From the NCBI GenBank assembly GCA_034414775.1, contig DAOULX010000024.1:24559-88558 (forward strand): 64,000 nucleotides of DNA, written 5' to 3'. The stretch's first letter is position 1. The number at the start of each line of letters is the position of its first letter. A program made the position numbers and the translations under genes. Under the pieces are notes generated by a model, which searched no databases, was not told the DNA's origin, and saw only the letters and a list, made by a program, of their open reading frames with translations. This document shows positions 2,914-46,414 of this stretch, piece after piece. Source of the stretch: Dehalococcoidales bacterium (lineage in GTDB: Bacteria; Chloroflexota; Dehalococcoidia; Dehalococcoidales; RBG-16-60-22).

Positions 2914-2924
2914 GGGGGGCGACC

Positions 2925-3487: not shown

Positions 3488-4489
3488 TTACCCGGTGAGC
3501 TCCCAGAAGCTCCGCAGGCTGCTGAAATCCACCATGCCGCTCTCGGCGACGTTTTCTACCTGGATTCCCGCCTCGACGGCGGCCGCCACGGGATTCAATC
3601 CCCCTAGCTGAATGAGCCCGACACGGTTCAGGGCTACCGGTACCTGGCAGAGTGGCTCGCTGGTCTGGCCGATGGCATAAAGACCCTTGATACCCGCCTC
3701 CCTCATCATGGCCGCCTTTTTCTCGACGACCTCACGGGCGGGGGCCGGGATGGTGCGGAAGGCGCCGAGGATTTTCCCGGTGCCGGTTCGCGCCGCCTGC
3801 CCGACGCTGGTCATCTTGGCCTGGATGAACTGCTCCGATGGGTCCGTAGAAGTACCGGCATACTCGGTGATAGCCACAAAGCGCTTTGGGATTGAGTCCT
3901 TAATTTCCAGCACACCGCCGAAACGGAACTCCGTGGGCACCCCGGCCTTGAGCAGGACCCCGTTGATGGTAGCGCCGCAGACCGTGGCGAATCCGACCTT
4001 GCCAGCGGGGACGACGACCGCGCCGAGTTTCTCTCCTTCGGCCGCCGTCGCCACTAGATCGCTGACACAGATGCCCGCTTTAAAGACTTCACCCATGGCG
4101 GTAATAGCCTTCTTAAAATCACCCAGGTCGAAGAGCGAGGTGTTGATGGCAAGCTGGCCGGTACGTCTCTCGGGTTTGAAGGTGGTCAGATAGGCCAGTA
4201 GCTCAAGCTTGTCCCGGACGAAGCCCAGCTGCTGCGGGGCCAGAGCTTCCTTGACCTCCTGCCTTCCTTTGGGGGTAATCATACGGCCGTCGCGGCCGCC
4301 CGGCTGGGTGAAGCCGCGCTCGTCGGCGATTTTAAGGTGGTACCTGACCGCCCGCTGCCCGAGGAACACGCCATCCTCTTCGAGCTTGCGGGCGATGGTG
4401 ATGGAGCCCAGCGGCTCGGAGGACTCACTCAACACTTTGAGAATGGCGATCAGCTTGTTTTCGGCGTCGGTGCCGACGGGTTGGTCCAT
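3488..4489 (-). CDS. nrpR: NrpR-family nitrogen repressor (winged HTH plus NrpR regulatory domain)
   Basis: N-terminal AILKVL..EPLGS..IARKL..RAVRYHLK..DERGFT wHTH; TVCGATINGVLL and GGLNPVAA in the regulatory domain; last gene of the nitrogen cluster. Confidence 0.88.
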   Translation of the reverse strand: MDQPVGTDAENKLIAILKVLSESSEPLGSITIARKLEEDGVFLGQRAVRYHLKIADERGFTQPGGRDGRMITPKGRQEVKEALAPQQLGFVRDKLELLAYLTTFKPERRTGQLAINTSLFDLGDFKKAITAMGEVFKAGICVSDLVATAAEGEKLGAVVVPAGKVGFATVCGATINGVLLKAGVPTEFRFGGVLEIKDSIPKRFVAITEYAGTSTDPSEQFIQAKMTSVGQAARTGTGKILGAFRTIPAPAREVVEKKAAMMREAGIKGLYAIGQTSEPLCQVPVALNRVGLIQLGGLNPVAAAVEAGIQVENVAESGMVDFSSLRSFWELTG

Positions 4490-4494
4490 CTTTT

Positions 4495-6252
4495 TCAGTC
4501 CCGGTTAAAACGGTTGGTGATCGGCAGCCGCCTATCCCGCCCGAAGGCCCGGGGGGTAATCTTGATACCGGGGGGCGCCTGACGCCGCTTATATTCACTG
4601 GTATCCACCAGCCTAGCCGCCCGGTGGGCCGCTTTTTCATCCATTCCCAGGGCTATAATCTGGGCGATGCTTTTGTCTTCTTCAACGTAGGCGGTAAGAA
4701 TGGGATCAAGGACTTCGTAGGGTGGCAGGGTATCGCTGTCCTTTTGGTCCGGCCTGAGCTCAGCCGAAGGCGGCTTGGCCATAACCGAAGCCGGGATAAC
4801 ATCTTTGCCGGTCCGGTCATTGCAGCAGGCCGCCAGCTTATAGGCCATTGTCTTGGGGACATCCTTAATCACGGCGAAGCCCCCCGCCATATCCCCGTAG
4901 AGAGTGGTATAGCCGGTGGCGTACTCGCTCTTGTTGCCGGTGGTGAGCACCAGCCAGCCGAACTTGTTGGAAAGGGCCATCAGGAGGTTCCCCCGGATGC
5001 GGGCCTGGAGGTTCTCTTCGGCTACACCGGTCTCCGTTCCCTTGAACGGCTCCTCAAGTGTGTCCAGGTAGGCCTGGAAGACCTTTTCGATGGGAACAGT
5101 GAGAAACTCGATGCCCAGATTTTTGGCGACGAGCCCGGCATCTGAGAGACTGCCTTTTGAAGAGTAGCGGGACGGCATGGCCACACCGATAACGTTCGAT
5201 TTGCCCAGGGCGTCGACGGCAATGGCCGCTACCAGGCTGGAGTCCAGCCCGCCGGAAAGCCCGATGAGTACTTTTTTAAAGCCGTTCTTCCGGACGTAGT
5301 CCCGTGTACCCAGCACCAGGGCTTCGTATATCTCGGTGATGAGATCGCAGGTATCCAGGTTGCAGGCGGAGAGGGGAGGTTTGTCCGTGCTGAAAGGAGT
5401 TTCCGACACGATAATGCTGTCCGGCAGGCGCCATCCCTGCTCCTGCCGCTGCGCCAGCCCCTGCCGGAACCTGGGATCGTGCAGTCTGGTCCGGAAGACG
5501 TTTTCGACATCCAGGTCGGCCAGTATCAGGTCTTCCTCGAACCGCTTGCCCCGGGTAATCAGTTGTCCCTTCTCGTTGATGATAAGTCCGTTGCCGTCGA
5601 AGACCAGCTCGTCCTGCCCGCCGATCAGGTTATTGAAGGCGAAGATGGCCACGTTGTCCGCGGCGCGGGTGGCGATCATCCTTTCCCGGAAGCCCGTTTT
5701 GCCAAAGTTGTACGGCGAGGAGCTGATGTTGACGATGACCTCCGCCCCGGAATACGCCTGGTCGGTGGCCGGCCCGGACTCGTACCATATGTCCTCGCAG
5801 ATGTTGACGCCGACCTTGATACCGGCGATTACGTAAACAGGGCATTGGCCGCCCGCCCGGAAATAGCGGTTCTCGTCGAAGACGCCATAGTTGGGGAGGA
5901 ACACCTTGTGGTAGGTGCCGACGTGTTTCCCATCGTGGATAATGGCGGCAGCATTGTAGATGTCTTCGTTCGCGTCCACGAAGCCCACCACCAGGGTAAT
6001 ACCCTTCGAGGCCTGGACTATTTTGTCTAACGACCTCAGGTTCTCGGCGATGAACTGTGGCTTGAAAAGGAGGTCTTCGGGCGGGTAGCCGCAGACGGCT
6101 AGCTCCGGGAATGTCAGAAGGTCCACACCCGAAGACCTGGCTTCCTCGATTGATTTGATTATCCGGCGCTGGTTACCGGCAAAGTCACCCACCGTGGCAT
6201 TGATCTGCGCCATGCCGATGCGCAGCCGGCGGGTGTCCAGCCATTTTACCAT
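4495..6252 (-). CDS. nadE: Glutamine-dependent NAD+ synthetase
   Basis: Nitrilase domain (FPEL, YHK, ICED) plus synthetase domain (GLSGGLDS, ENLQARIRG, TGNKSE, PPSAEL). Confidence 0.97.
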   Translation of the reverse strand: MVKWLDTRRLRIGMAQINATVGDFAGNQRRIIKSIEEARSSGVDLLTFPELAVCGYPPEDLLFKPQFIAENLRSLDKIVQASKGITLVVGFVDANEDIYNAAAIIHDGKHVGTYHKVFLPNYGVFDENRYFRAGGQCPVYVIAGIKVGVNICEDIWYESGPATDQAYSGAEVIVNISSSPYNFGKTGFRERMIATRAADNVAIFAFNNLIGGQDELVFDGNGLIINEKGQLITRGKRFEEDLILADLDVENVFRTRLHDPRFRQGLAQRQEQGWRLPDSIIVSETPFSTDKPPLSACNLDTCDLITEIYEALVLGTRDYVRKNGFKKVLIGLSGGLDSSLVAAIAVDALGKSNVIGVAMPSRYSSKGSLSDAGLVAKNLGIEFLTVPIEKVFQAYLDTLEEPFKGTETGVAEENLQARIRGNLLMALSNKFGWLVLTTGNKSEYATGYTTLYGDMAGGFAVIKDVPKTMAYKLAACCNDRTGKDVIPASVMAKPPSAELRPDQKDSDTLPPYEVLDPILTAYVEEDKSIAQIIALGMDEKAAHRAARLVDTSEYKRRQAPPGIKITPRAFGRDRRLPITNRFNRD

Positions 6253-6270
6253 CGCGTTCCCGACCTCCAG

Positions 6271-7632
6271 TTAGAGTATCGGCAAATATCTCGAAAGTTC
6301 GTATTCGGTTACCTGCGTTCTGTAGTTGTCCCACTCGATCTTTTTATTTTGAATGAAGGCTTCGAAGACGTGGTCACCGAGTGCGTTACGCACAAGTTCG
6401 CTTTTCTCGGTGAGCTGGATGGCTTCGAGCAGGCTGGCGGGTAGCATGTCGATGCCCCGCTCCTTCCGCTCTTCGGCGGTCATCTCGTAGATGTTCTCCT
6501 CGATGGGATCCGGGACCTGGTAGCCTTTTTCGATTCCTTCCAGACCAGCGGCCAGCATGACGCTGAAGGCCAGGTACGGGTTACAGGCCGGATCCGGCGA
6601 GCGGAACTCGATGCGGGTGGCCTTTTCCCGGCCGGGCCGGTACTCGGGAACACGTACGAGGTCGGACCGGTTGCGCCTGGCCCAGGAAAGGTAGACCGGG
6701 GCCTCATAACCGGGTACCAGCCGTTTGTAGGAGTTGACCCACTGGTTGCAGACGCCGGTAATCTCCTGGGCGTGCTTGAGCAGACCGGCGATATAGCCCT
6801 TGGCCTCTTTGGAAAGGTTATAAGAATCGCTGGCGTCAAAGAAGGCGTTGTGTTCCCCTTTGAAGAGGGACTGGTGCACGTGCATCCCGCTGCCGTTGAT
6901 ACCGAAGACCGGTTTGGGCATGAAGGTGGCATAAACACCGTTTTTAAGCGCGACTTCTTTGACGACGAGGCGGTAGGTCATGACGCTATCGGCCATGGTC
7001 AGGGCGTCCGTATACCGCATGTCAATCTCGTGCTGGCTTTCGGCGACCTCGTGGTGGGCGTATTCAACGCCGATGCCCATCTTCTCCAGATGGATGACGG
7101 TATCACGCCGTAGCTCGATGGCAGCGTCCCGGGTCGTCAGATCGAAATAGCCGCCCCGGTCCAGTATCTCGGTGGTGTAGTTATTCGGGTGCTCCGGGTC
7201 AGACTTGAAATAGAAGTATTCCAGCTCCGGTCCGACGTAAAAGGTATAGCCCATATCGGCGGCCCTTTTCAGGTTGTTCTTGAGGACGTATCTCGGGTCA
7301 CCCTCGAAAGGCTGGCCGCCCGGTCTCAGGACATCGCAGAACATGCGGGCCGTGGCGCGGTGTTCCGGCGGGGTCCATGGCAGCAGACACCATGTGTCCG
7401 GGTCCGGCATGGCCACCATATCGCTCTCGTCGATGCGGGCGAACCCCTGGATGGAAGAGCCGTCAAATCCCATCCCTTCTTCCATGGCGCCTTCAAGCTC
7501 CTCCACGGTAATCGCAAAGCTCTTGAGGATACCGAGGATGTCCGTAAACCACAGCCAGATGAATTTAACATCATGCTCTTTAGCCATCTTGAGGACATAC
7601 TCTTTGCCTTCTTCTCTGCTCATCGTTGACAT
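6271..7632 (-). CDS. glnA: Glutamine synthetase type I
   Basis: FDGSSIQG, GPELEYF, HHEVA, PKP..GINGSGMHVH, RIEFRSPDPACNPY. Confidence 0.98.
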   Translation of the reverse strand: MSTMSREEGKEYVLKMAKEHDVKFIWLWFTDILGILKSFAITVEELEGAMEEGMGFDGSSIQGFARIDESDMVAMPDPDTWCLLPWTPPEHRATARMFCDVLRPGGQPFEGDPRYVLKNNLKRAADMGYTFYVGPELEYFYFKSDPEHPNNYTTEILDRGGYFDLTTRDAAIELRRDTVIHLEKMGIGVEYAHHEVAESQHEIDMRYTDALTMADSVMTYRLVVKEVALKNGVYATFMPKPVFGINGSGMHVHQSLFKGEHNAFFDASDSYNLSKEAKGYIAGLLKHAQEITGVCNQWVNSYKRLVPGYEAPVYLSWARRNRSDLVRVPEYRPGREKATRIEFRSPDPACNPYLAFSVMLAAGLEGIEKGYQVPDPIEENIYEMTAEERKERGIDMLPASLLEAIQLTEKSELVRNALGDHVFEAFIQNKKIEWDNYRTQVTEYELSRYLPIL

Positions 7633-7652
7633 TCAATTACCTCCTGTGCTTT

Positions 7653-7681
7653 ATTTTAACCTTTCTGCGGTCGTTTGTCAT
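7653..7681 (-). promoter_or_regulatory. Candidate sigma70 promoter for glnA-nadE-nrpR
   Basis: Minus strand ATGACA-17 nt-TAAAAT, followed by AGGAGG RBS. Confidence 0.55.
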
Positions 7682-7713
7682 CACTGTTTTACATCAAATC
7701 TCCCCTTACTGCT

Positions 7714-8052
7714 TTATATTGCGCTTTCATTTCGGTCACCGGTACGGACGCGCACCACACCTTCGACGGGGAGGATAAATATCTTGCCATCGCCCGCTTC
7801 GCCGGTGCGGGCGGTCCTGACGATGGCATCCACGGCCCCGGCCACGTCCTCATCGAGCAGGACCAGCTCTACCTTTATCTTGGGGAGCAGGTCAACCCGG
7901 TATTCACCTACCCGCCACTGGAGGAGTATGCCCTTCTGTTTCCCCCGGCCGCTCACTTCGCTGACGGTCATCCCGTAGTAGCTGTGCTCCTCCAGAGCCT
8001 TTTTAACAGCATCCAGTCTCTCTTCCCTTATAATCGCTTCTATCTTTTTCAT
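7714..8052 (-). CDS. glnK: P-II nitrogen regulatory protein (GlnK-type by linkage to amt)
   Basis: MKKIEAIIR, VSGRGKQKG, T-loop GEY (Tyr51), GDGKIF, VRVRTG. Confidence 0.95.
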   Translation of the reverse strand: MKKIEAIIREERLDAVKKALEEHSYYGMTVSEVSGRGKQKGILLQWRVGEYRVDLLPKIKVELVLLDEDVAGAVDAIVRTARTGEAGDGKIFILPVEGVVRVRTGDRNESAI

Positions 8053-9278
8053 CGTAACAGGCCTCCGTAAGCCCTTTCTCCATGCTGTGAGAGATCAAGT
8101 CCGACCGATTCTTCGGACGGAGTGACCCGCAGTCCAATAGTAATGTCAATTAGTTTGCCGAGCACCCAGGTAACGCCGAAGGCAAAGGCGGCCACGGTAA
8201 CGATGCCGATGAGCTGTGTCAGCACCTGGTTGAAGTTGCCCTCGAACAAACCCGCCGTTCCGCCGACGGCCGAGCTGGCGAAAATACCCGTGGCTAGGGC
8301 CCCCCAGATGCCTCCCATGCCGTGAACAGCGAACACGTCCAGGGAATCATCGAAGTGCAGCTTGTTTTTCATCAGGATGATACTATAGTAGCAGACCACG
8401 GCGACGATAATTCCGATGGGGATCGCGGCGATGGGGTGAACAAAACCGGCCGCCGGGGTAATGGCTACCAGGCCGGCGACCGCCCCGGTCACCGTCCCCA
8501 ACAGGCTGGGGCGGCGGGTTATCCAGCCGAGCATCATCCAGGTGAAGCCGGCGGAGGCGGCGGAAAGATTGGTGGCGACGAAAGCGTTGGCTGCCAGCCC
8601 GTCGGAGGTCAGGGCGCTGCCGGCATTAAAGCCGAACCATCCGAACCAGAGCAGACCGGCCCCCAGGGCCACCAGGGGGATATTGTTGGGCTCCATGATG
8701 TCCCCATCGAAACCGCGGCGCCTGCCCAGCACCAGGACGAGCGCCAGTGCCGAAACTCCGGCGTTAATATGGACAACGGCGCCGCCGGCGAAATCAAGGG
8801 CGCCAAGCCCGCCGAGCCAGCCGCCGCTTCCCCACACCCAGTGGCATATCGGGGAGTAAACAACGGTCATCCAGAGTGTGGAGAAAATCATCAGGGCGCT
8901 GAATTTGATGCGTTCCACCACAGCGCCGGTAATCAGGGCGACGGTAATAATAGCGAACATACCCTGGAAAGTCATGAAGGCCAGGTGAGGCACGGTGGAG
9001 GCGTAAGTATCCGAGGGCGCCATGCCGACACTGGCCAGGCCGATGAAATTGAGTCCGCCGATAAATCCGCCCTTGTCCGTACCGAAAGCCAGGCTGTAGC
9101 CCCAGAGCGCCCAGAGAGCGCCAATAAAGCCCATAACCGCGAAGCTCATCATCAGAGTGGATAGCAGGTTTTTACGCCGTACCATGCCACCGTAGAAAAG
9201 GGCTAGGCCGGGTGTCATCAGCAGCACCAGTGCCGAAGACATCAACAGCCAGGCAGTATCACCTGAATTTACGGGCAT
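8049..9278 (-). CDS. amtB: Ammonium transporter (copy 1)
   Basis: MTPGLALFYGG, FQGMFA, DFAGG..VHINAG, WFGWFGFNAGS, VFAVHG, GLDLSQHGE. Confidence 0.97.
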   Translation of the reverse strand: MPVNSGDTAWLLMSSALVLLMTPGLALFYGGMVRRKNLLSTLMMSFAVMGFIGALWALWGYSLAFGTDKGGFIGGLNFIGLASVGMAPSDTYASTVPHLAFMTFQGMFAIITVALITGAVVERIKFSALMIFSTLWMTVVYSPICHWVWGSGGWLGGLGALDFAGGAVVHINAGVSALALVLVLGRRRGFDGDIMEPNNIPLVALGAGLLWFGWFGFNAGSALTSDGLAANAFVATNLSAASAGFTWMMLGWITRRPSLLGTVTGAVAGLVAITPAAGFVHPIAAIPIGIIVAVVCYYSIILMKNKLHFDDSLDVFAVHGMGGIWGALATGIFASSAVGGTAGLFEGNFNQVLTQLIGIVTVAAFAFGVTWVLGKLIDITIGLRVTPSEESVGLDLSQHGERAYGGLLR

Positions 9279-9326
9279 TTCTCTTTCCTCCCGACTATTA
9301 CTTCATTGATATAATAGCCGGTTATT

Positions 9327-9364
9327 GTTTCCGGTAGATTACAGATGTGTTACAAACGTGTTAC
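9327..9364 (-). promoter_or_regulatory. Four-part direct-repeat operator (GlnR-box-like) upstream of amt copy 1
   Basis: Minus strand GTAAC-N6-GTAAC-N6-GTAAT-N6-GAAAC with exact 11-bp period, just upstream of a TATTAT -10 (9316-9311). Confidence 0.75.
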
Positions 9365-9382
9365 GTACGGGTGGAATCTTTG

Positions 9383-10615
9383 TTAACGGAGCAGGCCTCC
9401 GTAAGCCCTTTCTCCGTGCTGGGAAAGGTCCAGGCCGACCATTTCCTCGGACTGGCTGACCCGCAGGCCTAACGTCAACGCCACCAGCTTGCCCAGGACC
9501 AGCGTAATGACGAAGGCGTAAGCGCCTACAGCCGCCAGGCCAAGGGCCTGTCTGACGAGCTGCATCCCGCTCCCTGAGACAAGACCGGCGGCCCCGGCAG
9601 GGTTCACCGCTAAGCTGGCGAAGATGCCGACAAAAACCATCCCCAGGATGCCCCCAACCCCGTGCACGGCGAACACGTCCAGCGAGTCGTCAAAACCGAG
9701 CCGGGTCTTTAAGAACAGCATGGCATAATAGCAGACGCACGCCGCAACGACGCCGACGGGAATAGCGGCCAGCGGAGTAATATAGCCGGCGGCGGGGGTC
9801 ACCGTTGCCAGCCCGGCCACGGCCCCGGTGACCATACCGAGGATAGTGGGGCGCCGTTGCCGCCAGTTTAGCATCATCCAGGTAAAGGCGGCGGCCGCGG
9901 CGGCGGTATTGGTGGTGACGAAGGCGCTGGCCGCCAGGCCACCGGCGGTCAGGGCGCTGCCGGCGTTGAAGCCGAACCACCCGAACCAGAGCAGCCCCGC
10001 CCCGAGCACTACCAGCGGTATGTTGTTGGGCTCCATGGAATCCTGGGGAAAGCCGCGGCGCCTTCCCAGCAGTAATACCAGCGCCAGGGCCGAGACGCCG
10101 GCATTAATGTGAACCACTGCACCGCCAGCGAAGTCGAGGACACCCAGATTGGCCAGCCAGCCGCCGCCCCAGACCCAGTGGGCTATCGGGCTGTACACGA
10201 GGGTCAGCCATAATGCTGAAAAAACCAGCAAGGCACTGAACTTGACTCTTTCCACTATAGCGCCGGTGAAAAGGGCAACGGTAATGATAGCGAACATTGC
10301 CTGGAAAATCATGAAGGCCAGGTGCGGAACCGTGGAGGCATACAGCGGTGAGGGATCCTGGCCGACGTTCGTGAGGCCGATGAAGTTCAGTCCGCCGATG
10401 AAGCCGCCGTAGTCGGTGCCGAAAGCTAGGCTGTAACCGTAAATTACCCAGAGCAGGCCAACCAAACCCAGGCAGACGAAGCTCATCATCAGGGTTGACA
10501 GGAGGTTCTTGCGCCGCACCATACCCCCGTAGAAAAGCGCCACACCCGGCGTCATTAGCATCACCAGCGCCGATGATACGAGAATCCAGGCGGTATCCGC
10601 TGGGCTTATGGCCAT
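9383..10615 (-). CDS. amtB: Ammonium transporter (copy 2)
   Basis: Same Amt motifs as copy 1; tandem paralogue. Confidence 0.97.
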   Translation of the reverse strand: MAISPADTAWILVSSALVMLMTPGVALFYGGMVRRKNLLSTLMMSFVCLGLVGLLWVIYGYSLAFGTDYGGFIGGLNFIGLTNVGQDPSPLYASTVPHLAFMIFQAMFAIITVALFTGAIVERVKFSALLVFSALWLTLVYSPIAHWVWGGGWLANLGVLDFAGGAVVHINAGVSALALVLLLGRRRGFPQDSMEPNNIPLVVLGAGLLWFGWFGFNAGSALTAGGLAASAFVTTNTAAAAAAFTWMMLNWRQRRPTILGMVTGAVAGLATVTPAAGYITPLAAIPVGVVAACVCYYAMLFLKTRLGFDDSLDVFAVHGVGGILGMVFVGIFASLAVNPAGAAGLVSGSGMQLVRQALGLAAVGAYAFVITLVLGKLVALTLGLRVSQSEEMVGLDLSQHGERAYGGLLR

Positions 10616-10662
10616 AAATGACCTCCCGCAATGTGAGTTATGGGTACACTTTAGCGGACTTA

Positions 10663-10709
10663 TGTTACAAACGTGTTACAAAAACGGGGAAATGTTAAGA
10701 ACATGTTTC
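10663..10709 (-). promoter_or_regulatory. GlnR-box-like direct repeats upstream of amt copy 2
   Basis: TGTTACAAACGTGTTAC (10663-10679) is identical to 9348-9364; a second pair GAAAC-N6-TTAAC lies at 10709-10694 on the minus strand. Confidence 0.7.
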
Positions 10710-10748
10710 ATGAAGGCAGGATTGATTTATTGTCAGCCGGGGCGACCG

Positions 10749-11423
10749 CTAGCTGTCTTTAACGAAGCGGTAGCCTATATTGCGGACCGTTTCAATATAG
10801 GTATGGCCAGCATCTTCAATCTTGCTGCGGAGCCGGCGCACATGGACATCCACGGTGCGGTCACCGCCGAAGTAATCATAGCCCCAGATACTGTTGAGCA
10901 GGGTCTGGCGGGTAAAAACGCGTCCCTTGTTGCTGGCCAGCAGCTTGAGAAGCTCGTACTCTTTGAAGGTGAGTTCGACGACGGCCCCGTTGACTACCAC
11001 CTCACAGGTAGCCAGGTCGATGAGGAGGCCCTTGCCTTTTATCTGCTCGGCGCTATCGGCTTCGCCGTTCTTCTTCAGGAGACGCTCTATCCTCAGGTTA
11101 AGCTCCCGAGGGTTGTAGGGAGTAACGACAAAGTCATCCACGTCAAGCCGGCTATCGATTCTGTTTACAATGTCGGACGGTATCAGCGCGATTACCGGCA
11201 GAGTCCGCCCCTTTCGGGCCTTACTGACGAGATCCCATATCTCCTCATCCGGCGCATCTTTGCCCAATTCAAGTATAAAGACATCCGGGCGGGTGTCAGC
11301 GATAGCTTCCCGGACACCATTGCTGTAAGAGGTGAAAGAGCAGGCCACGTTGTAGCGGGCCAGTCCTTCGCGGAGTACGGCCTTTGTTTCGCTGTCCTGA
11401 ACTACTGCCAGTGCGCGTACCAT
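10749..11423 (-). CDS. glnR: OmpR-family regulator with atypical receiver, GlnR-like
   Basis: C-terminus LTFKEYELL..GRVFTR..WGYDYFGGDRTVDVHVRRLR..ETVRNIGYRF closely resembles actinobacterial GlnR; receiver has Glu at the phospho-Asp site (PDVFILEL) and lacks the conserved Lys (VVTPY). Confidence 0.75.
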   Translation of the reverse strand: MVRALAVVQDSETKAVLREGLARYNVACSFTSYSNGVREAIADTRPDVFILELGKDAPDEEIWDLVSKARKGRTLPVIALIPSDIVNRIDSRLDVDDFVVTPYNPRELNLRIERLLKKNGEADSAEQIKGKGLLIDLATCEVVVNGAVVELTFKEYELLKLLASNKGRVFTRQTLLNSIWGYDYFGGDRTVDVHVRRLRSKIEDAGHTYIETVRNIGYRFVKDS

Positions 11424-11442
11424 ATGCTCTACTGCATGGCTT

Positions 11443-12222
11443 TCAATAGGCGTAAAGTCGGCCGTAGGGGCGTAGGAAGCGGGGGTATAGTTTCAGGAAC
11501 TCCTGGTCCAGTATCTCATGAGCGTTATAGTTGAAAAGGGTAGCAAACTCACCGACCAGGTCCCTCAGGACGGTAAAGTCCTTTTCGTCCAGCTCTGCGA
11601 CGCCTACCTCTTTTCCCAGCTGGTAATCCGCAAAGCTGCCCCTCAGGTAGATAATGCCGCCGTGCATGCCCGTCCCGATGAACCGGGCACGGTGCTTTGG
11701 GTCTTTCCCAAGGGTGAGTCCCAGGAGCACCAGGATACCCCCGGCCATGTACTCCCCGACGAAGTCCTGGGCGGTCCCGCCGACGACGACCACCGGCTTC
11801 TTGCTACGGTACTCTTTCATGTGGATGCCGGCCCGGTAGCCGACGTCCTCGCGGATGAGGATGCGGCCGCCGCGCGCCGACAGGCCGACCGTGTCCCCGG
11901 CGTGGCCGTGGACAACAATCTCTCCCTCGTTCATGGTGTTACCGCAACCGTCCTGGGCATTACCGTGGACGATAATCCTCGGACCGTTCATGAAGGCGCC
12001 GAGGTCATTGCCGGGCGTACCGAAAATATCAATCTCTACCGGTCTATCCAGGTCCGTGCCGATGTAGCGCTGGCCGTGGACGTTGCGTATCTCGATGCGG
12101 GGTGCCCCATCGGCGACGATCTCCCGGAGGCAGGTATTAAGGTCGCGATAATATACACCCGAGGCATCAATATTGACTGTCGCGCCCTGGTCTGTCCCGG
12201 TTTTTGTGGTGTTGGTGGCCAT
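11443..12222 (-). CDS. Glutamate synthase subunit, C-terminal GXGXG beta-helix domain (GltB domain 3)
   Basis: GQRYIG, GTPGNDLGAFM, GNAQDGCGNTM, GEYMAGG repeats; start at ATG 12222. Confidence 0.9.
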   Translation of the reverse strand: MATNTTKTGTDQGATVNIDASGVYYRDLNTCLREIVADGAPRIEIRNVHGQRYIGTDLDRPVEIDIFGTPGNDLGAFMNGPRIIVHGNAQDGCGNTMNEGEIVVHGHAGDTVGLSARGGRILIREDVGYRAGIHMKEYRSKKPVVVVGGTAQDFVGEYMAGGILVLLGLTLGKDPKHRARFIGTGMHGGIIYLRGSFADYQLGKEVGVAELDEKDFTVLRDLVGEFATLFNYNAHEILDQEFLKLYPRFLRPYGRLYAY

Positions 12223-12224
12223 CT

Positions 12225-13730
12225 TTATCTCCCTGCCATGCGTACACCGAGAGTATCCAGCTCGGTATCGGAAAGTCCGACGCCCCTGAGGTGCAGCCGG
12301 TTGCCGCGCAGGCTCTCCAGGGCGTTGACCCCCAGCCCGCCCAGGATATCTTTCAGCTCTATGCTCCAGCCGCGGAGCAGGTTGGCTGCCCGGCGTGACC
12401 CGATATCCGGGTTGATGCGCTTGGTGAGGCGCAGGTCCGAGGTGCAGATGCCCCAGGCGCACTTGCCGGTGTGGCACTGCTGGCAGACGTGGCAGCCGAG
12501 TGAAATAAGAGCAGCCGTGCCTATATACACGGCGTCGGCGCCGAGGGCCATCGCCTTGGCCACGTCGCCGGCGCTGCGGATCCCGCCGGAAACGACGACG
12601 GACGCCTGATTGCGGATACCTTCCTCTCTGAGGCGGGTATCAACTGAGGCCAGCGCCATCTCAATGGGAATGCCGACATTATCGCGGATGACCTTGGGTG
12701 CGGCGCCGGTGGCCCCGCGCAGGCCGTCCAGCACGACCATATCGGCCCCGCCCCGCACGATGCCACTGGCGATGGCGGCGGCGTTATGCACGGCGGCAAT
12801 CTTGACCGATATCGGCTTGGTGTAGTTGGTCGCCTCCTTGAGGGCATAGATGAGCTGGGCCAGGTCTTCGATGGAGTAGATATCATGTTGCGGCGCCGGG
12901 GAAAGGGCGTCCGTCCCTTCGGGGATCATGCGCGTGAGGGATACCTCGGCGCTGACCTTCTCGCCAGGGAGGTGCCCACCGATGCCCGGCTTGGCCCCCT
13001 GGCCGATTTTTATCTCGACAATGCGGCCGGCGTCCAGGTACTCGGCGTGGACGCCGAAACGCCCCGAGGCCACCTGGACGATAGTGTTGTTACCGTACTT
13101 ATAAAGGCTGGGGTGCAGCCCGCCCTCACCGGTGTTCCACAGGGTGCCCATCTCCGTGGCCGCCCGCGCCAGGGACTCCTGGACGTTGCGGCTTACCGCC
13201 CCGTAGGACATGGCGGCGAACATTATAGGCACGTTCAGCTTGACCAGCGGGGTCATTTTGGTCTTCAGCTTGCCGGTGGCGGGGTCGATTTCTATCTTGT
13301 CCGGCCGGCGACCCAGGTAAGTGGTCAGCTCCATCGGCTCCCGGAGGGGGTCGATGGATGGATTGGTCACCTGGCTGGCGTTAAGGAGAAGGTGGTCCCA
13401 GTAGATGCGCTGCGTTTTATCATCGCCCATGCTGGTCAGCAGCACGCCGCCGGTCTCCGCCTGCTTGGTGATGTCCTCGATGACGTCCGGGCGCCAGTTG
13501 AAGTTGCCCCTGACGTCCGGCGGATTGTAGGAAACCGTCAGGGCGTGCGTCGGGCAGAAGACGACGCACCGCTGGCAACCGACACAGTTTTCTTCGTGGC
13601 TTTTAATGACGTCTTCTTCGGCGTCGTATTCCTGGGCCCCGAAGCTGCACTGGTTGACACAGACCTGGCACCGGATGCAGCGATCTTCGTCCCTGTTTAT
13701 CTTAAATTTTGGTGCGATATACGTTTTCAT
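12225..13730 (-). CDS. Glutamate synthase FMN-binding subunit with N-terminal ferredoxin domain (archaeal-type GltB domain 2)
   Basis: CIRCQVC/CVGCQRC, AMSYGA, NTGEGG, QVASGRFG, EIKIGQGAKPG.GG.LPG.KV, CHVCQQCHTGKC. Confidence 0.95.
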   Translation of the reverse strand: MKTYIAPKFKINRDEDRCIRCQVCVNQCSFGAQEYDAEEDVIKSHEENCVGCQRCVVFCPTHALTVSYNPPDVRGNFNWRPDVIEDITKQAETGGVLLTSMGDDKTQRIYWDHLLLNASQVTNPSIDPLREPMELTTYLGRRPDKIEIDPATGKLKTKMTPLVKLNVPIMFAAMSYGAVSRNVQESLARAATEMGTLWNTGEGGLHPSLYKYGNNTIVQVASGRFGVHAEYLDAGRIVEIKIGQGAKPGIGGHLPGEKVSAEVSLTRMIPEGTDALSPAPQHDIYSIEDLAQLIYALKEATNYTKPISVKIAAVHNAAAIASGIVRGGADMVVLDGLRGATGAAPKVIRDNVGIPIEMALASVDTRLREEGIRNQASVVVSGGIRSAGDVAKAMALGADAVYIGTAALISLGCHVCQQCHTGKCAWGICTSDLRLTKRINPDIGSRRAANLLRGWSIELKDILGGLGVNALESLRGNRLHLRGVGLSDTELDTLGVRMAGR

Positions 13731-13758
13731 GGTTCCCTCAGTTTTCCCGGCACGGCAG

Positions 13759-14889
13759 CTATCCCGCCGCGGCTTTCTCTCCGGCGGGTACCTTGGTTTT
13801 TAGCCGGCCTATGACCGGCTCGCCGCCGGTAGGTATCCAGGCCTTGTCAAGATCGGGGGATATGAGACGAATGGCGGCCTCCTCCGAGGACAGGTATAGC
13901 ATGTCCCCCTTCTCCCCGACGGTCAGCGGGCGCAGGCGGATGCGGTCCGTCAGGCCGATCATCTCCCCGGTGTGGGCGATGACAACGGCGAACGGCCCGT
14001 TGAGGAGCAGGCTGCCGTAGACCTGACGCAGCGCCATGGCAAGCTGCTTCTCGTCCTCCGGCATGCGCTCGATATCGTCCCAGAAAGGAGCGGCCAGCAC
14101 TTTGGCGGCGATCTCCAGTGGAAGTTCATGCCGGCGCATCAGCAGGTCGATGGCGTAAGCGATGACCTCGGTATCCGTCTGCATGGTGCACAGGTAGCCG
14201 AACTGCTCCAGGTAGCGCCGGTTGATGCCGTAGGACGATATCTCGCCGTTGTGAACGACCGTCCAGTCGAGGATGGAGAACGGGTGCGCCCCGCCCCACC
14301 AGGCCACGGTGTTGGTCGGGAAGCGGCCGTGGGCCGTCCACAGGTAGCCCTGGTACTGCTCCAGGCGGAAGTATTCGGCAAGCTCCTCGGGATAGCCGAC
14401 GCCTTTAAAAACGGCCATGTCCTTACCGCTGGAAAAGACGAAGCTGTCGTCCGGGCTGGTATTGATTTCCATAACCCTGGCCATCACGTAGTCGTCCGCG
14501 GTCTGGGTTTCCGGCAGGCCTTCCGGTACGTCGACGAAGTAGCGCCATACCAGCGGCGGATTCTTGATGACTGCCGTAGGCCGCGTGGGTACCTCTTCCT
14601 GCCAGACGACGCTGAAGGACCGGCGCAGGAATTCTTCGGTGTCCCGCTTGTCGTCATCGTCCAGGAACATAAGGTGTATGGCATAATGTTCGGCGTGCTC
14701 CGGGTAGAGGCCGTAGACGGCGAAACCCCCGCCGAGGCCGTTGCCGCGGTCGTGCATATTGGCGATGGCCTTGATGACACTCTCGCCGGAGAACCTCCGG
14801 CCGGAGGTGTCCATGGCCCCGAAAATGGAGCACGCGTCGATTACCTTATCGTCGTTCCAGGTATTATTTATCTTTTCGAGGTTTTTCAT
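13759..14889 (-). CDS. Glutamate synthase glutamine amidotransferase subunit (class II GATase, GltB domain 1)
   Basis: DACSIFG (catalytic Cys after a 19-aa leader), HDRGNGLGGG, HGRFPTN, VHNGEI, DRIRLRP. Confidence 0.92.
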   Translation of the reverse strand: MKNLEKINNTWNDDKVIDACSIFGAMDTSGRRFSGESVIKAIANMHDRGNGLGGGFAVYGLYPEHAEHYAIHLMFLDDDDKRDTEEFLRRSFSVVWQEEVPTRPTAVIKNPPLVWRYFVDVPEGLPETQTADDYVMARVMEINTSPDDSFVFSSGKDMAVFKGVGYPEELAEYFRLEQYQGYLWTAHGRFPTNTVAWWGGAHPFSILDWTVVHNGEISSYGINRRYLEQFGYLCTMQTDTEVIAYAIDLLMRRHELPLEIAAKVLAAPFWDDIERMPEDEKQLAMALRQVYGSLLLNGPFAVVIAHTGEMIGLTDRIRLRPLTVGEKGDMLYLSSEEAAIRLISPDLDKAWIPTGGEPVIGRLKTKVPAGEKAAAG

Positions 14890-14910
14890 TTTTCTTCCAT
14901 CGCGTAATTA

Positions 14911-15002
14911 TCATCCTGAGCGAAGCGAAGGATCTCGGGGTGGTGGGGCTTATTACCGCCCCTCTCCGAGATTCTTCAGTCGCTGTGCTCCTTCAGAATG
15001 AC
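14911..15002. repeat. REP-like palindromic repeat, family A
   Basis: tcatcctgagcgaagcgaaggatct...gagattcttcagtcgctgtgctccttcagaatgac. Confidence 0.85.
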
Positions 15003-15012
15003 ATTATTGTAA

Positions 15013-16362
15013 TTAGTCTGCCCCCAACTCCTCCTCCGGTTCTTCCGGGGCGCCGACGGCCACAGGGACGATATTGCCATCATGACCGGCCAGCCGGTGC
15101 CGCCAGGTTGATTCCGGTACGGAGGCCAGGCCGAAATCGGCGGCGACCAGGGACTCCTTGAATCCGCTGACGTCCACGCCATCCTTCATCAGATTATAGA
15201 TGATGCCTGATTTCTCAATGTCCCCGGCGAAGACCAGTCCCGCCAGCTTCCCGTCCCTGACGAGTACCTTGCGGTAGTTACCATCGGACCTGTTGACCAG
15301 GGTCTCGTAGGAGCTATCCGGAGGTACGGTCAGGCCGGCCGAGACAATGTGCACCCCGAAGTATTTCATGGCGTTCATGGCCGTTCCGCCGGCGTACTCT
15401 TCTTTCCCGCCGGCCATATTCAGTCCGGCGGTCCTTCCCCCTTCGCAGGCGTTGGGCCAGATGGGAGTGAGCCGGTTCTCCCCGATCACGAAGTCGTAGG
15501 CCTCGGAAACGTCACCACAGGCGTAGACATCTCGCACGGAGGTCTCCATGCTCCGGTTGACCAGGATTCCCCGGTTGACCTTGAGGCCGCTCCCTTCGAT
15601 AGCGTCAAGCCGCGACCTCACGCCGATGGCCACGATGACCATCTCGGCGGGTAAGATGCGCCCGTCATCGAGAGTGACGCCGCTGACCTCGCCGGGCAGA
15701 TAGCTGTTAATCTTCGAGGACGTATGGTCGGTGATGATTTTGATTCCAGCCTCTATTAGCGCTTCGGCTTCCAGGTTTGAGGTCTCTTCGTCGAGGATAG
15801 TGTTCAGGATGCGGTCTTTCATCTCGACGATAGTGACCTCGACGCCGCGTCTGACCAGGGCCTCGGTGACACTGACGCCGATGAGGCCGCCGCCGATGAC
15901 CACCGCCCGCACCCCCCGGTGGAGTCCTTTGAGAAACTCATTGATAGCCTTGGCGTCGTCGAGCTTGTTGAAAGTAAAGACTCCCTTTTGAGTGACTCCT
16001 TCCAGCTCGGGGACAATGGGTGTGCCGCCGGTGGCCAGCAGGAGCTTTTCATAGGCCGGCACACTGCCTCCGGCCAGCTTGACGGTATGCCCGGCGGTAT
16101 CAATTTGGGTAACCGGCTCCCCGAGGGCGGTTTGAATCCCGTTCGTTTCGTAGAAATCAAGCTGGCGGTAGACCATCTTCTCGATCGGTCCGGGATTGGC
16201 CAGATATTCGGAGATAAGCGGCCGTGAATAAGCCGGATAAGGCTCATCCGAGACGATGGTAATCGAGCCTTCCCGGTCGATTTCACGGATGGCCTCGGCC
16301 GCGCCGATACCGCCCGCCGAGTTTCCGATGATGAGATATTTAATTTTCTTAGTAGCCGCCAT
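15013..16362 (-). CDS. NAD(P)/FAD-dependent oxidoreductase (NADH oxidase/NirB-N-like)
   Basis: IIGNSAGG, YSRPLI, LLLATG, VIGGGLIG, VYACGD; start at ATG 16362. Confidence 0.9.
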   Translation of the reverse strand: MAATKKIKYLIIGNSAGGIGAAEAIREIDREGSITIVSDEPYPAYSRPLISEYLANPGPIEKMVYRQLDFYETNGIQTALGEPVTQIDTAGHTVKLAGGSVPAYEKLLLATGGTPIVPELEGVTQKGVFTFNKLDDAKAINEFLKGLHRGVRAVVIGGGLIGVSVTEALVRRGVEVTIVEMKDRILNTILDEETSNLEAEALIEAGIKIITDHTSSKINSYLPGEVSGVTLDDGRILPAEMVIVAIGVRSRLDAIEGSGLKVNRGILVNRSMETSVRDVYACGDVSEAYDFVIGENRLTPIWPNACEGGRTAGLNMAGGKEEYAGGTAMNAMKYFGVHIVSAGLTVPPDSSYETLVNRSDGNYRKVLVRDGKLAGLVFAGDIEKSGIIYNLMKDGVDVSGFKESLVAADFGLASVPESTWRHRLAGHDGNIVPVAVGAPEEPEEELGAD

Positions 16363-16456
16363 GATATTACCGCCTGGTGTGGTTCGCGTTTCTGACAAGA
16401 GCAAGTACAATTAACGATTCGTTCCCGGTTTGGCCGGACCGGGTGTTTTATATTAT

Positions 16457-16825
16457 TTAGTTATCCACCGTCACTTCGACGATGTTCTCCCGGGCGATGG
16501 CCGTTTCCCCACCGTTTTTCCTGACGAACACGTGCATCAGCCCCAGTATCTCGTACTGGCCGTTCTTCAGGATGGTGGTATCCCACCTGACCGGAAAGTT
16601 CTGGGATTTATCTTCCGACTCCCCAATCAAAATCCAGGTATCCTCGCCCTTGGCCCGGAAGTACCACGGATTAACAATCCTGACTATCGGACCATCCAGT
16701 TTTAATTCCGCCAGTTCCTGGCGTAGCAGGCCTTCATCCAGTTCCTCACGGAGTTGGATGGCCCCGGAGTAGGTCTTGGTGACGTTGGAAGGTACCAGGT
16801 AATGTGGCCCCCAGTTATGTGACAT
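16457..16825 (-). CDS. Hypothetical protein (122 aa) inside the glutamate synthase operon
   Basis: GGAGG RBS, co-oriented with neighbours, no recognised motif. Confidence 0.75.
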   Translation of the reverse strand: MSHNWGPHYLVPSNVTKTYSGAIQLREELDEGLLRQELAELKLDGPIVRIVNPWYFRAKGEDTWILIGESEDKSQNFPVRWDTTILKNGQYEILGLMHVFVRKNGGETAIARENIVEVTVDN

Positions 16826-16861
16826 TTTTTAACCTCCTTGATGGATAATTCAAGGAATGAT

Positions 16862-17347
16862 TTACCGGGTCGGGACGGCGGTGCGATCTTCAGGATTCTT
16901 GCTTTCATCCGGTACTTCGGCGTAGATTAGTGCCTCGTTGGGGCAGTTGGCGACGCATACCGGTATCTCCTCATCCTGGCAAAGGTCACATTTGACCATC
17001 TTCTTCTGGGCCGGGTCGAGCTTCGGGACGCCCAGCGGGCAGGCGAGGGAACAGGTGCCACATCCGATGCAGCGGTCTTCGTCTACATTTACCAGGGAAG
17101 TGACGGGATCACGGGAGAGGGCGCCGGTCAGGCAGGCCCGGATGCACGCGGCATCGGCACAGTGCTGGCAACGCACCGAAAGGGAAACGACACCGTTTTC
17201 ATCGACCCTCAGCCTGGAGATGGGGCGGGGGGTCTCTTTTTTATGGGCCTTGACCAGGTCTTTGGACCGGGAGTGTTTCAGCCGGCAATAGACCTCGCAG
17301 AGGCGGCAGCCGATACATACCTGGTCGTTAACGATAACCTGTTTCAT
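16862..17347 (-). CDS. 4x[4Fe-4S] ferredoxin-like protein (CooF/HydN-like)
   Basis: CIGCRLC, CQHCADAAC..C, CIGCGTC..CP, CDLC..C..CP; start at ATG 17347. Confidence 0.92.
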   Translation of the reverse strand: MKQVIVNDQVCIGCRLCEVYCRLKHSRSKDLVKAHKKETPRPISRLRVDENGVVSLSVRCQHCADAACIRACLTGALSRDPVTSLVNVDEDRCIGCGTCSLACPLGVPKLDPAQKKMVKCDLCQDEEIPVCVANCPNEALIYAEVPDESKNPEDRTAVPTR

Positions 17348-17372: not shown

Positions 17373-17396
17373 AATGCGGCAAACGTTTGCCGCATT
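17373..17396. promoter_or_regulatory. Perfect 24-bp palindrome, candidate repressor operator
   Basis: AATGCGGCAAAC|GTTTGCCGCATT, overlapping the predicted transcription start of the glutamate synthase operon. Confidence 0.7.
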
Positions 17397-17400
17397 TATC

Positions 17401-17429
17401 ATAATAACATGACAGAAGGATTTTGTCAA
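17401..17429 (-). promoter_or_regulatory. sigma70 promoter of the glutamate synthase operon
   Basis: TTGACA (17429-17424), 17 nt, then TG-T-TATTAT extended -10 (17409-17401). Confidence 0.75.
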
Positions 17430-17818
17430 TAACGCGGATTTTGAGGGTTTTTTCACATGGTGCCGCCTATCTCTTTTCAACCGCATTATAGGCAGGAGGA
17501 CATTATTAATGCAAATGGTCCCCATAAGGGATTTTATTACATTTTTCAGGTAAAATCGTCTACCTCCATGGATTAGGGGATTCCTCAATCAACTCTGCGG
17601 GTAAATAATGCGGAGGGATTTATATCTTGATTTACAGGTAGGCGAAGTTTCCAATATTAACGAAATATTTAGACGCTTCAAGGTTACATTTATGATTTGT
17701 TTACCGGTGTGGAGATAAGATTCACTTTGGATACGACCATCAGCCGGTGGGTTTAAACGGCTGAAATGATCCTGAAGAGAGCAGGAAACCGGAAAATATA
17801 TACACGGGGCTTGATGCT

Positions 17819-18622: not shown

Positions 18623-18671
18623 AACGCACCGACGAACAAGTGGAAATGGTTTGAGAAATGAGGAAAAGCCT

Positions 18672-39200: not shown

Positions 39201-39217
39201 TGGTAGGGAGGAGGGGT

Positions 39218-39297
39218 GTCATCCTGAACGAAGTGAAGGATCTTGTCCCTTTCCCGGATAACGAGATTCTTCAGTCGCTACGCTCCTTCAGAATGAC
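39218..39297. repeat. REP-like palindromic repeat, family A
   Basis: gtcatcctgaacgaagtgaaggatct...gagattcttcagtcgctacgctccttcagaatgac. Confidence 0.85.
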
Positions 39298-39300
39298 AAA

Positions 39301-46256: not shown

Positions 46257-46291
46257 TTTAGTCCTCCTTATCAAAAACTCTAAGTCCGGTT

Positions 46292-46385: not shown

Positions 46386-46414
46386 ACCTCATCAAGATTA
46401 GAGTTTAAATTTTT

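Follow-up and report, generated by a model that had tools for sequence, protein, structure and literature searches.

A predicted two-tier nitrogen circuit linking NrpR-type and GlnR-type regulators in an uncultured Dehalococcoidales bacterium

In the archaea Methanococcus maripaludis, Methanosarcina mazei and M. acetivorans, nitrogen genes are under the control of NrpR or NrpRI, in which a winged helix is joined to NRD sensing domains. The archaeal NrpR operator is GGAAN6TTCC (PMC2723118), and NrpR homologues have been on record in Dehalococcoides since 2007 (PMC1852104). In Actinobacteria, GlnR (PDB 8HIH, 8HML, 4O1H) is an orphan OmpR/PhoB-type activator of amtB and glnA; the MerR-type GlnR of Bacillus is unrelated to the regulator described below. 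GlnR sites follow the consensus GTAAC (gTnAc/GaAAC) with 6-nt spacers, four protomers bind at amtB, and the protein is regulated in part at the protein level (PMC10235972). In Streptomyces coelicolor, one report describes PhoP as controlling glnR transcription and as also touching GlnR targets (PMC2691820).

Here we describe a locus in which members of both families lie together, within a window (the whole stretch of DNA analysed) of 64,000 nucleotides. The host is an uncultured Dehalococcoidales bacterium in which ammonium-assimilation genes are gathered in a single cluster. The original prediction had named thirteen co-oriented genes over 17347..3488; all are on the minus strand, their identities were borne out by Pfam and NCBIfam, and the span is exact, running from the Fe-S ATG to the nrpR stop. 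The regulatory region reaches slightly past the Fe-S ATG, to 17429. The genes are:

16862..17347, minus strand: 4Fe-4S dicluster protein that opens the operon (Fer4_11 and other Fer4 families; DmsB/HydN-like)
16457..16825, minus strand: conserved 122-aa protein, without Pfam or NCBIfam match
15013..16362, minus strand: FAD/NAD(P) oxidoreductase (Pyr_redox_2 and Rubredoxin_C; nearest PadH, 305 bits)
13759..14889, minus strand: glutamate synthase (gltB) amidotransferase piece (GATase_2)
12225..13730, minus strand: glutamate synthase (gltB) FMN piece (Glu_synthase, E 8e-136; N-terminal 2x[4Fe-4S] domain, Fer4)
11443..12222, minus strand: glutamate synthase (gltB) GXGXG piece (GXGXG; ATG read at 12222)
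10749..11423, minus strand: GlnR-type OmpR-family regulator with degenerate receiver (Pfam Trans_reg_C only, without Response_reg match)
9383..10615, minus strand: amt1, ammonium transporter (Ammonium_transp, E 4e-132)
8049..9278, minus strand: amt2, ammonium transporter (Ammonium_transp; 70% identity to amt1)
7714..8052, minus strand: P-II, GlnK-like (P-II, E 3e-29; start overlaps the end of amt2)
6271..7632, minus strand: glnA, type I glutamine synthetase (TIGR00653, 539 bits)
4495..6252, minus strand: nadE, glutamine-dependent NAD+ synthetase (CN_hydrolase and NAD_synthase)
3488..4489, minus strand: nrpR, last gene, 5 bp past nadE (HTH_12 and NRD1_2, E 8e-74)

The FAD/NAD(P) oxidoreductase is likely the electron input to glutamate synthase, and homologues of the 122-aa protein are found in many related clusters. 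The gene order is repeated in independent Dehalococcoidales contigs (L081, L082, L086 and L088), and nrpR and the glnR-like gene share one cluster in 11 fetched loci; the arrangement is hence conserved rather than a chance juxtaposition. The divergent genes adjoining the cluster, encoding a 267-aa protein and a GAF-HD neighbour, are also conserved in relatives.

The NrpR encoded here has an N-terminal winged helix (HTH_12, residues 14-78, E 2e-18) followed by a sensor domain (NRD1_2, residues 88-326, E 8e-74), and residues 102-330 align with MJ0159 (PDB 3NEK; E 1e-19). It carries a single NRD domain, which is the architecture of Methanosarcina NrpRI. Dehalococcoidales hold at least 120 clusters of NrpR homologues at an identity of at least 75%.

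The second regulator had been proposed to be GlnR-like, and this typing stands for its DNA-binding domain and does not extend to its receiver. The best PDB matches of the protein are the GlnR entries 8HML, 8HIG and 8HIH; with the DNA-binding domain by itself as query, GlnR structures reach 105, 104 and 99 bits and the next OmpR-family protein 81 bits. Moreover, the family profile recovers bona fide actinobacterial GlnR, among it L070, with 260 bits to the GlnR of M. tuberculosis, and R189, V193, R196 and R197 are identical to the base-contacting R186, V190, R193 and R194 of S. erythraea GlnR. The same R, V, R and R (RTVDVHVRRLR helix) occur in E. coli PhoB, so these residues are necessary rather than specific and do not prove GTAAC specificity. 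The receiver-like domain keeps its length and fold (alignment and AF2 model) but is degenerate, with Glu52 at the phospho-site and without the conserved Thr and Lys. Used as a query, this half did not retrieve GlnR receiver structures, and a fold search was non-discriminating. No partner kinase gene is encoded in the cluster or nearby. The closest relatives of the protein come from Dehalococcoidales and Chloroflexota MAGs, and relatives adjoining glnA, nadE or gltB occur also in records titled Omnitrophota, Armatimonadota and Planctomycetia; the family is not confined to Actinobacteria. It bears the IMG label 'PhoP', and the window holds a second OmpR-type gene at 35210..35914.

Upstream of the Fe-S gene lie a promoter, P1, and a palindrome that we infer to be the site of NrpR:

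17401..17429, minus strand: promoter P1 (-35 TTGACA 17429..17424; 17-nt spacer with extended TG; -10 TATTAT 17406..17401)
17374..17395, no strand assigned: predicted NrpR operator, perfect palindrome ATGCGGCAAACGTTTGCCGCAT, 22-24 bp, core GGCA-N6-TGCC

P1 is the top promoter-like site between 3000 and 19000 (11/12 matches), and its TTGACA and TAnnAT elements are kept across a 7-locus alignment. The palindrome begins 5 nt past the -10 box, ends 26 nt ahead of the Fe-S ATG and occurs once in the window, where 0 occurrences are expected. Its core has the spacing of the archaeal GGAA-N6-TTCC and shares 3/4 half-site letters with it. The strict archaeal pattern is absent from the cluster and is carried exactly by relative L006, the bacterial variant being GGYA-N6-TRCC. 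Footprinting in relatives placed the motif 38-51 bp 5' of the Fe-S ATG in 8/8 related loci. A 22-bp consensus, ATRCGGYAAWCGKTTRCCGYAT, was built from 15 sites, 13 of which have both a TTGAC-type -35 box and a -10-like element ahead of them. With this consensus, an unbiased scan of metagenomes yielded 120 loci, in which the nearest downstream gene was tallied: it was Fe-S in 65, glnR-like in 9, nrpR in 6, gltB in 2 and amt in 1, and adjacent ORFs sampled from the remaining loci include glutamine amidotransferase and glutamate-synthase-domain genes. Sites ahead of nrpR suggest autoregulation and thereby link the motif to NrpR.

The glnR-like gene begins 19 bp past the preceding gene and is, given so short a gap, probably co-transcribed from P1. 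Alternatively, NrpR might act on glutamate synthase only, with the GlnR-like protein always present and set post-translationally, either by a ligand or partner on its pseudo-receiver or by modification as in actinobacterial GlnR, and with its adjacency to gltB accidental. We consider such parallel control unlikely. The protein-level regulation of actinobacterial GlnR is a precedent for it (PMC10235972), the preserved length and fold of the receiver-like domain suggest a remaining role, and a P-II gene lies inside the cluster. However, no credible promoter was found in the 19-bp gap of the window, and the operator follows the glnR-like gene out of the gltB operon: where detached from gltB the gene keeps the motif, in L001, L002, L006 and 9 metagenome loci.

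We give little credence to the view that the palindrome belongs to something other than NrpR, whether as a 5'-UTR RNA hairpin acting in stability or attenuation or as the operator of another factor, with the products of the conserved divergent genes, the 267-aa protein or the GAF-HD protein, as candidates. The palindrome does begin close to +1 of the P1 transcript and, as RNA, would fold into a 5' hairpin; T stands opposite G in asymmetric sites, as fits G-U wobble, and the divergent genes stay beside the cluster. Yet ten core positions are invariant in their letters, beyond what pairing would need, in a set of loci where NrpR shows 42-79% identity to that of the window, and the half-site geometry is that of the archaeal NrpR operator. 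Furthermore, L001 and L002 have a copy that abuts the GlnR boxes of an amt promoter on their upstream side and is therefore outside the transcript of that promoter, and in 6 loci the motif stands immediately 5' of nrpR without other nitrogen genes close by.

The second motif, which we infer to be recognized by the GlnR-type regulator, precedes both transporter genes:

10664..10709, minus strand: predicted GlnR boxes at the amt1 promoter (GAAAC 10709..10705; TTAAC 10698..10694; GTAAC 10679..10675; GTAAC 10668..10664)
9311..9364, minus strand: amt2 promoter (GTAAC 9364..9360; GTAAC 9353..9349; GTAAT 9342..9338; GAAAC 9331..9327; -10 TATTAT 9316..9311)

At amt1 the boxes are followed by a -10-like TAAAGT (10653..10648), at amt2 the last phased box is 10 nt from the -10 TATTAT, and neither promoter has a -35 box. 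Exact GTAAC-n6-GTAAC occurs twice in the window against 0.1 expected, both times ahead of amt genes. Boxes lie upstream of amt in 14/14 related loci with an amt gene, and at 13 of 16 amt genes in loci found via the operator, independently of GlnR. Over 15 loci (the window and 14 related ones), 33 of 45 box matches are on the coding strand and no more than 250 bp ahead of nitrogen genes (binomial P ~4e-39). Chloroflexota of other lineages, without NrpR, have such boxes too.

In B. subtilis, PhoP boxes are TT(A/T/C)ACA repeats, likewise with an 11-bp period. That a different OmpR/PhoB-family regulator, of phosphate for instance, binds the boxes here while the neighbouring regulator has other targets is hardly credible: the IMG family name, the recognition helix common to PhoB and the second OmpR-type gene would fit it, but the boxes adjoin the regulator gene in every locus, ahead of amt or glnA and including the Chloroflexota without NrpR, the DNA-binding domain is clearly nearest GlnR, and the neighbouring regulator has no phospho-acceptor Asp, which a PhoR partner would require.

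The remainder of the cluster has a promoter-like site of its own:

7653..7681, minus strand: promoter-like site ahead of glnA (ATGACA-17-TAAAAT), with neither operator nor GTAAC boxes

This site is kept in L082, L084, L088 and L001. As glnA thus has a separate promoter bearing neither motif, the proposed circuit covers only part of the cluster. No terminator is visible between the glnR-like gene and amt1, so read-through between them is possible.

A hybrid cascade of NrpR and GlnR had been predicted for this cluster, and each half now has sequence evidence, the operator at P1 and the GTAAC boxes at amt. We regard as fairly probable a two-tier circuit in which NrpR represses P1 and the GlnR-like protein then activates the amt promoters. 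In the first tier, NrpR would sit as a symmetric oligomer on the 22-bp palindrome past the P1 -10 box and block initiation for the Fe-S gene, the 122-aa gene, the FAD oxidoreductase gene, the three gltB pieces and the glnR-like gene; by analogy with archaeal NrpR, it would be released when 2-oxoglutarate is high, in nitrogen shortage. In the second tier, derepression would yield glutamate synthase and the GlnR-type activator, which may occupy, in head-to-tail order, the three or four GTAAC-like boxes phased at an 11-bp period. The boxes come as near as 10 nt to the -10 elements of amt1 and amt2, and RNA polymerase could be recruited as it is by actinobacterial GlnR at amtB. Given the pseudo-receiver (Glu, without the conserved Thr and Lys, and with no partner kinase), the activator is probably active as made and mainly set by abundance; a pseudo-receiver could nonetheless respond to a ligand or to a partner, P-II for example, which makes control by amount alone a guess. 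Expression of glnA, nadE and nrpR would come from their own promoter and from read-through out of amt2 and P-II, an arrangement that would feed NrpR back onto the system.

More tentatively, at somewhat less than even chances, an archaeal nitrogen module (NrpR, possibly plus the split archaeal-type glutamate synthase operon) may have been gained by a Dehalococcoidales ancestor and set atop an older GlnR-type regulon, with NrpR as the sole metabolite sensor and the GlnR-type protein as a constitutive amplifier. If so, the amplifier would be phosphorylation-independent (Asp to Glu), output would depend only on NrpR release, and the circuit would amount to a repressor-to-activator relay across domains of life in which NrpR also controls its own gene.

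As judged from these sequences, the predicted cascade wires two known regulator families together in a new way. The NrpR half resembles archaeal NrpR in its winged helix and NRD domain and in a predicted palindromic operator with equal half-site spacing, sited at nitrogen-gene promoters. In contrast to the archaeal systems, this bacterial host uses sigma-70 promoters, and the predicted operator lies just past the -10 box, where archaea have it behind a TATA box; its half-sites read GGYA in place of GGAA, and it is lengthened to 22 bp around a conserved central CG. As targets here we predict mainly the glutamate synthase operon, the gene for a second regulator and nrpR; those in the window exclude nif, glnA and amt. 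The other half resembles actinobacterial GlnR in its DNA-binding domain, in being an orphan regulator with an atypical receiver without the conserved Lys, and in its predicted GTAAC/GAAAC sites, three or four in phase with 6-nt spacers, at an ammonium transporter promoter without a -35 box. It differs in belonging to Chloroflexota rather than Actinobacteria, in having Glu where actinobacterial GlnR keeps the phospho-site Asp for dimer contacts, and in sitting under a predicted NrpR operator. The last feature recalls PhoP and glnR in S. coelicolor, where likewise a second regulator acts at the glnR promoter, as predicted here, and the likeness extends to L001 and L002, where the predicted site of the upstream regulator abuts the GlnR boxes of an amt promoter. 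PhoP, however, is a phosphate response regulator, whereas the upstream regulator here is an archaeal-type repressor of nitrogen status, and the proposed logic is serial, with derepression followed by activation in response to a single nutrient signal.

The 13 ORFs of the nitrogen cluster form one head-to-tail series on the minus strand from 17347 to 3488, and their Pfam and NCBIfam identities bear out the original prediction of a nitrogen cluster of 13 co-oriented genes. In cluster order, they are:

first ORF, minus strand: 4Fe-4S protein (Pfam/NCBIfam)
16457-16825, minus strand: 122-aa protein without a family match, inside the glutamate synthase operon
minus strand: PadH-like FAD oxidoreductase (Pfam/NCBIfam)
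minus strand: split glutamate synthase in three pieces, GATase_2; Fer4 + Glu_synthase; GXGXG (ATG at 12222) (Pfam)
11423..10749, minus strand: OmpR-type regulator (the glnR-like gene), sole Pfam match Trans_reg_C
minus strand: two ammonium transporters (amt1, amt2), then P-II (Pfam/NCBIfam)
minus strand: type I glutamine synthetase (glnA) and glutamine-dependent NAD synthetase (nadE) (Pfam/NCBIfam)
last ORF, minus strand: NrpR, 333 aa, HTH_12 and one NrpR regulatory domain (E 8e-74)

Intergenic gaps are short except before amt1 (133 bp), amt2 (104 bp), glnA (81 bp) and gltB (123 bp). The two amt products are 70% identical, and NrpR can be aligned with MJ0159, an NrpR-like domain of known structure. 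No NCBIfam model matched NrpR, and the regulator received sub-threshold generic OmpR models only. The glutamate synthase (11443-17347, minus strand) comprises three genes plus the Fe-S protein and the PadH-like flavoprotein in place of a GltD small subunit. A three-gene glutamate synthase without GltD is an archaeal-type layout, and it may have travelled together with nrpR. Homologues of the 122-aa protein recur in many related clusters, sometimes at another cluster position (L004; L001-L089 are fetched related genome loci, and higher numbers are metagenome loci).

Ahead of the Fe-S gene lies P1, the region's best match to a sigma-70 promoter, followed by a perfect palindrome, the predicted NrpR operator:

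17429..17401, minus strand: P1, TTGACA, 17-nt spacer with extended TG, TATTAT
17395..17374: palindrome ATGCGGCAAACGTTTGCCGCAT, starting five bases past the P1 -10 box

A predicted operator directly past the -10 box implies repression. The palindrome occurs once in the window, against zero matches expected, and its core, GGCA-N6-TGCC, has the archaeal operator spacing and three of four half-site letters in common with the archaeal NrpR consensus, GGAAN6TTCC (PMC2723118). The strict archaeal pattern GGAANNNNNNTTCC occurs three times in the window, as often as chance would give, and nowhere in the cluster. A perfect match to the operator core at 33331..33346 was taken as chance because it falls within an ORF and has no flanking palindrome. 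Searches of the window for Rfam families, glutamine riboswitch included, and for tRNAs found none.

Sites of another kind precede the amt genes. GlnR recognizes GTAAC (a-site gTnAc, b-site GaAAC) at sites 6 nt apart, with four protomers on the amtB promoter (PMC10235972), and in the window the predicted boxes are:

10709..10648, minus strand: amt1 boxes, GAAAC-n6-TTAAC, 14 nt, GTAAC-acgttt-GTAAC, 10 nt, TAAAGT
9364..9311, minus strand: amt2 boxes, GTAAC-acgttt-GTAAC-acatct-GTAAT-ctaccg-GAAAC, 10 nt, TATTAT

Exact GTAAC-n6-GTAAC is found twice in the window against 0.1 expected, both times ahead of an amt gene.

Relatives were gathered in two ways, with a regulator-based profile (80 genome loci) and by exact protein look-ups (L081-L089). 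The closest of them place the window in an uncultured Dehalococcoidales/Chloroflexota genome. The recurring gene order is Fe-S, (unknown), FAD oxidoreductase, gltB x3, regulator, amt (x1-2), P-II, glnA, nadE and nrpR, and nrpR shares a cluster with the regulator in 11 fetched loci (L001, L003, L004, L006-L008, L031, L081, L082, L086, L088). Footprinting, a check proposed with the original prediction, found both kinds of site kept. Upstream of the Fe-S gene, the operator core CGGnAAnnnnTTnCCG lies 38-51 bp ahead of the ATG in 8/8 loci, preceded by -35 (TTGAC-type) and -10 (TAnnAT) boxes. Fifteen sites gave the 22-bp operator consensus ATRCGGYAAWCGKTTRCCGYAT; the L006 site matches GGAA-N6-TTCC exactly. 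GlnR boxes with one mismatch or none are present on the coding strand, mostly 57-92 bp ahead of the amt ATG, in all 14 of the amt-bearing related loci, and in L003 and L031 upstream of glnA as well. The 3.3% of strand-specific sequence that immediately precedes nitrogen genes holds 33 of the 45 box hits (P about 4e-39), and boxes were also found at 13 of 16 amt genes in loci retrieved through the operator, not the regulator.

The position of the operator varies among relatives. In L001, L002 and L006, the regulator gene lies elsewhere than behind gltB. L001 and L002 have the predicted operator at the regulator's own promoter, and in these two loci a predicted operator also adjoins the GlnR boxes at the second amt promoter, so that some relatives would add direct NrpR control there. 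In L006, the predicted operator is at the promoter of an operon of hisH/hisF-like genes, nrpR and the regulator. Such hisH/hisF-like genes join the predicted NrpR-controlled operon in both L086 and L006. In L001, a small ORF of ~50 aa (2918-3070) separates the predicted NrpR-controlled promoter from the glnR-like gene. In other Chloroflexota, without NrpR, boxes are found between the regulator gene and glnA, and the GlnR-type regulon is therefore the wider and probably the older layer.

A metagenome collection was also scanned with the 22-bp consensus alone, and the nearest downstream gene was scored for each locus. Among the at least 120 loci listed, these were:

65 loci: Fe-S gene of the gltB operon
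9 loci: glnR-like gene
6 loci: nrpR itself
5 loci: hisH-like amidotransferase
5 loci: FlpD-like gene
4 loci: glutamate-synthase-domain genes
4 loci: MTHFR-like genes
2 loci: gltB
1 locus: amt
19 loci: short contigs or unknown

The six nrpR loci (L109, L120, L132, L158, L181, L198) represent a second NrpR clade, 40-48% identical to the window NrpR. Among the matches listed, they carry TTGACA, spacer, operator and nrpR ATG in that order, with no further nitrogen gene nearby. This arrangement looks like autoregulation of the second-clade NrpR and is the strongest link at hand between the 22-bp motif and NrpR. In L104, L113, L151 and L190, fully symmetric operator copies precede an MTHFR-like gene (MTHFR + DUF5981), a possible NrpR target beyond nitrogen assimilation.

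The regulator's best solved-structure matches are actinobacterial GlnR entries, namely 8HIG, 8HIH (the transcription activation complex of M. tuberculosis GlnR) and 8HML (the DNA-bound form of the S. erythraea GlnR DNA-binding domain). When the query was restricted to the DNA-binding domain, the GlnR entries scored 105, 104 and 99 bits, compared with 81 for the next OmpR-family protein and 69 for PhoB. The regulator-family profile retrieves Actinomycetota proteins adjoining glnA. One of these, L070, is an unmistakable GlnR: it reaches 260 bits with GlnR of M. tuberculosis and matches GlnR receiver structures too. The four base-reading residues of the S. erythraea complex are identical in the regulator; E. 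coli PhoB has the same recognition helix, so these residues are necessary but not sufficient for GlnR identity. A second, ordinary OmpR-type regulator (35210..35914, plus strand) is 30% identical to the GlnR-like protein.

Aligned to canonical receivers, the N-terminal half of the regulator is a diverged receiver, with Glu52 at the phospho-acceptor position, Ile/Pro for the conserved Thr/Ser and Thr101 for the conserved Lys. Glu52 is nearly invariant across the window's clade, while Asp is kept in deeper Dehalococcoidia and in Microbacteriaceae GlnR. An AF2 model (pLDDT 78) retains a (beta-alpha)5-like fold in which Glu52 ends strand 3; Foldseek with this model returned generic OmpR/PhoB full-length folds only and did not discriminate GlnR. 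No histidine kinase gene was found within the cluster. GlnR-type regulators also adjoin nadE, glnA or an Fe-S/gltB operon in L033, L037, L042, L051 and L065, whose records are titled Omnitrophota, Armatimonadota and Planctomycetia. The GlnR-type family is much wider than Actinobacteria.

The original prediction held that NrpR represses P1, glnR included, and that GlnR then activates the amt promoters. At the sequence level, this cascade is supported by the position of the glnR-like gene behind gltB, by operator conservation and by the metagenome scan. The glnR-like gene starts 19 bp past the last gltB gene, and no credible promoter of its own was found in the window; it is therefore most likely made from P1. 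NrpR would repress P1, derepression would yield glutamate synthase together with the GlnR-type activator, and the activator would switch on amt1 and amt2/P-II. We infer the assignment of motifs to proteins, the signs of regulation and the 2-oxoglutarate signal. Ahead of glnA lies a separate conserved promoter-like site that lacks both operator and GlnR boxes, and nadE and nrpR come closely behind glnA.

Several further elements lie in or beside the cluster:

14895-15005: copy of a ~95-bp REP/MITE-like element, within the cluster between FAD oxidoreductase and gltB
about 2580-2660, 39215-39310, 46290-46390, 60400-60490: further copies
17819-19814, plus strand: 267-aa protein without a Pfam family and GAF + HD (HD_5) protein, divergent from P1
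310-3419, plus strand: IscS-like, NifU-like and DsrE-like genes and a 169-aa ORF, flanking the cluster

The repetitive palindromic element, TGTCATTCTGAAGG...GAAGAATCTCGGGGAGGGG...CCCCGAGATCCTTCGCTTCGCTCAGGATGACA, has at least five copies in the window, and three occur in tandem between P-II and glnA in L081 (12680-13010). Both divergent genes are conserved beside the cluster in L081-L089; a 315-aa minus-strand ORF (17753..18700) was rejected as spurious, the real gene being the plus-strand 267-aa ORF. Conserved AT-rich phased repeats at about 17650-17705, TAAAC-n6-TAAAT-n16-TAAAT-n6-TTAAT, overlap the promoter-like sites of the divergent gene and have the 11-bp period of GlnR boxes with a different pentamer.

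NrpR homologues in Dehalococcoides were noted in 2007 as likely lateral transfers (PMC1852104); save for that note, the papers searched did not link NrpR to regulation in Dehalococcoidia. IMG names window-type NrpR proteins NrpRI or 'repressor of nif and glnA', and the activator's current pipeline annotation is 'PhoP'. In the papers searched, we found no description of a bacterial NrpR operator or regulon, of GTAAC boxes paired with a GlnR-type regulator beyond Actinobacteria, or of any coupling between the two regulators. The similar gene order that the original prediction gave for Dehalococcoides was not confirmed, because L022, the sole D. mccartyi representative, has a differing context with a more distant GlnR-like gene and no nrpR within 10 kb.

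Dehalococcoidia abound in sediments and aquifers and play an important part in dechlorination, and to our knowledge their nitrogen control is essentially undescribed. As far as we know, no concrete operator and regulon had been predicted for a bacterial NrpR before the sites reported here, and the pairing of GlnR with GTAAC boxes appears to reach beyond Actinobacteria. In this cluster, an archaeal repressor gained by horizontal transfer may act on sigma-70 promoters above a resident activator, a clean natural case that bears on the rewiring of regulatory networks that follows gene transfer. Compared with actinobacterial GlnR, the regulator differs in two strict features, the conserved Asp and the taxon, and is therefore termed GlnR-type rather than GlnR. 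The component parts belong to known families; the predicted wiring between them would be a new combination of known kinds.
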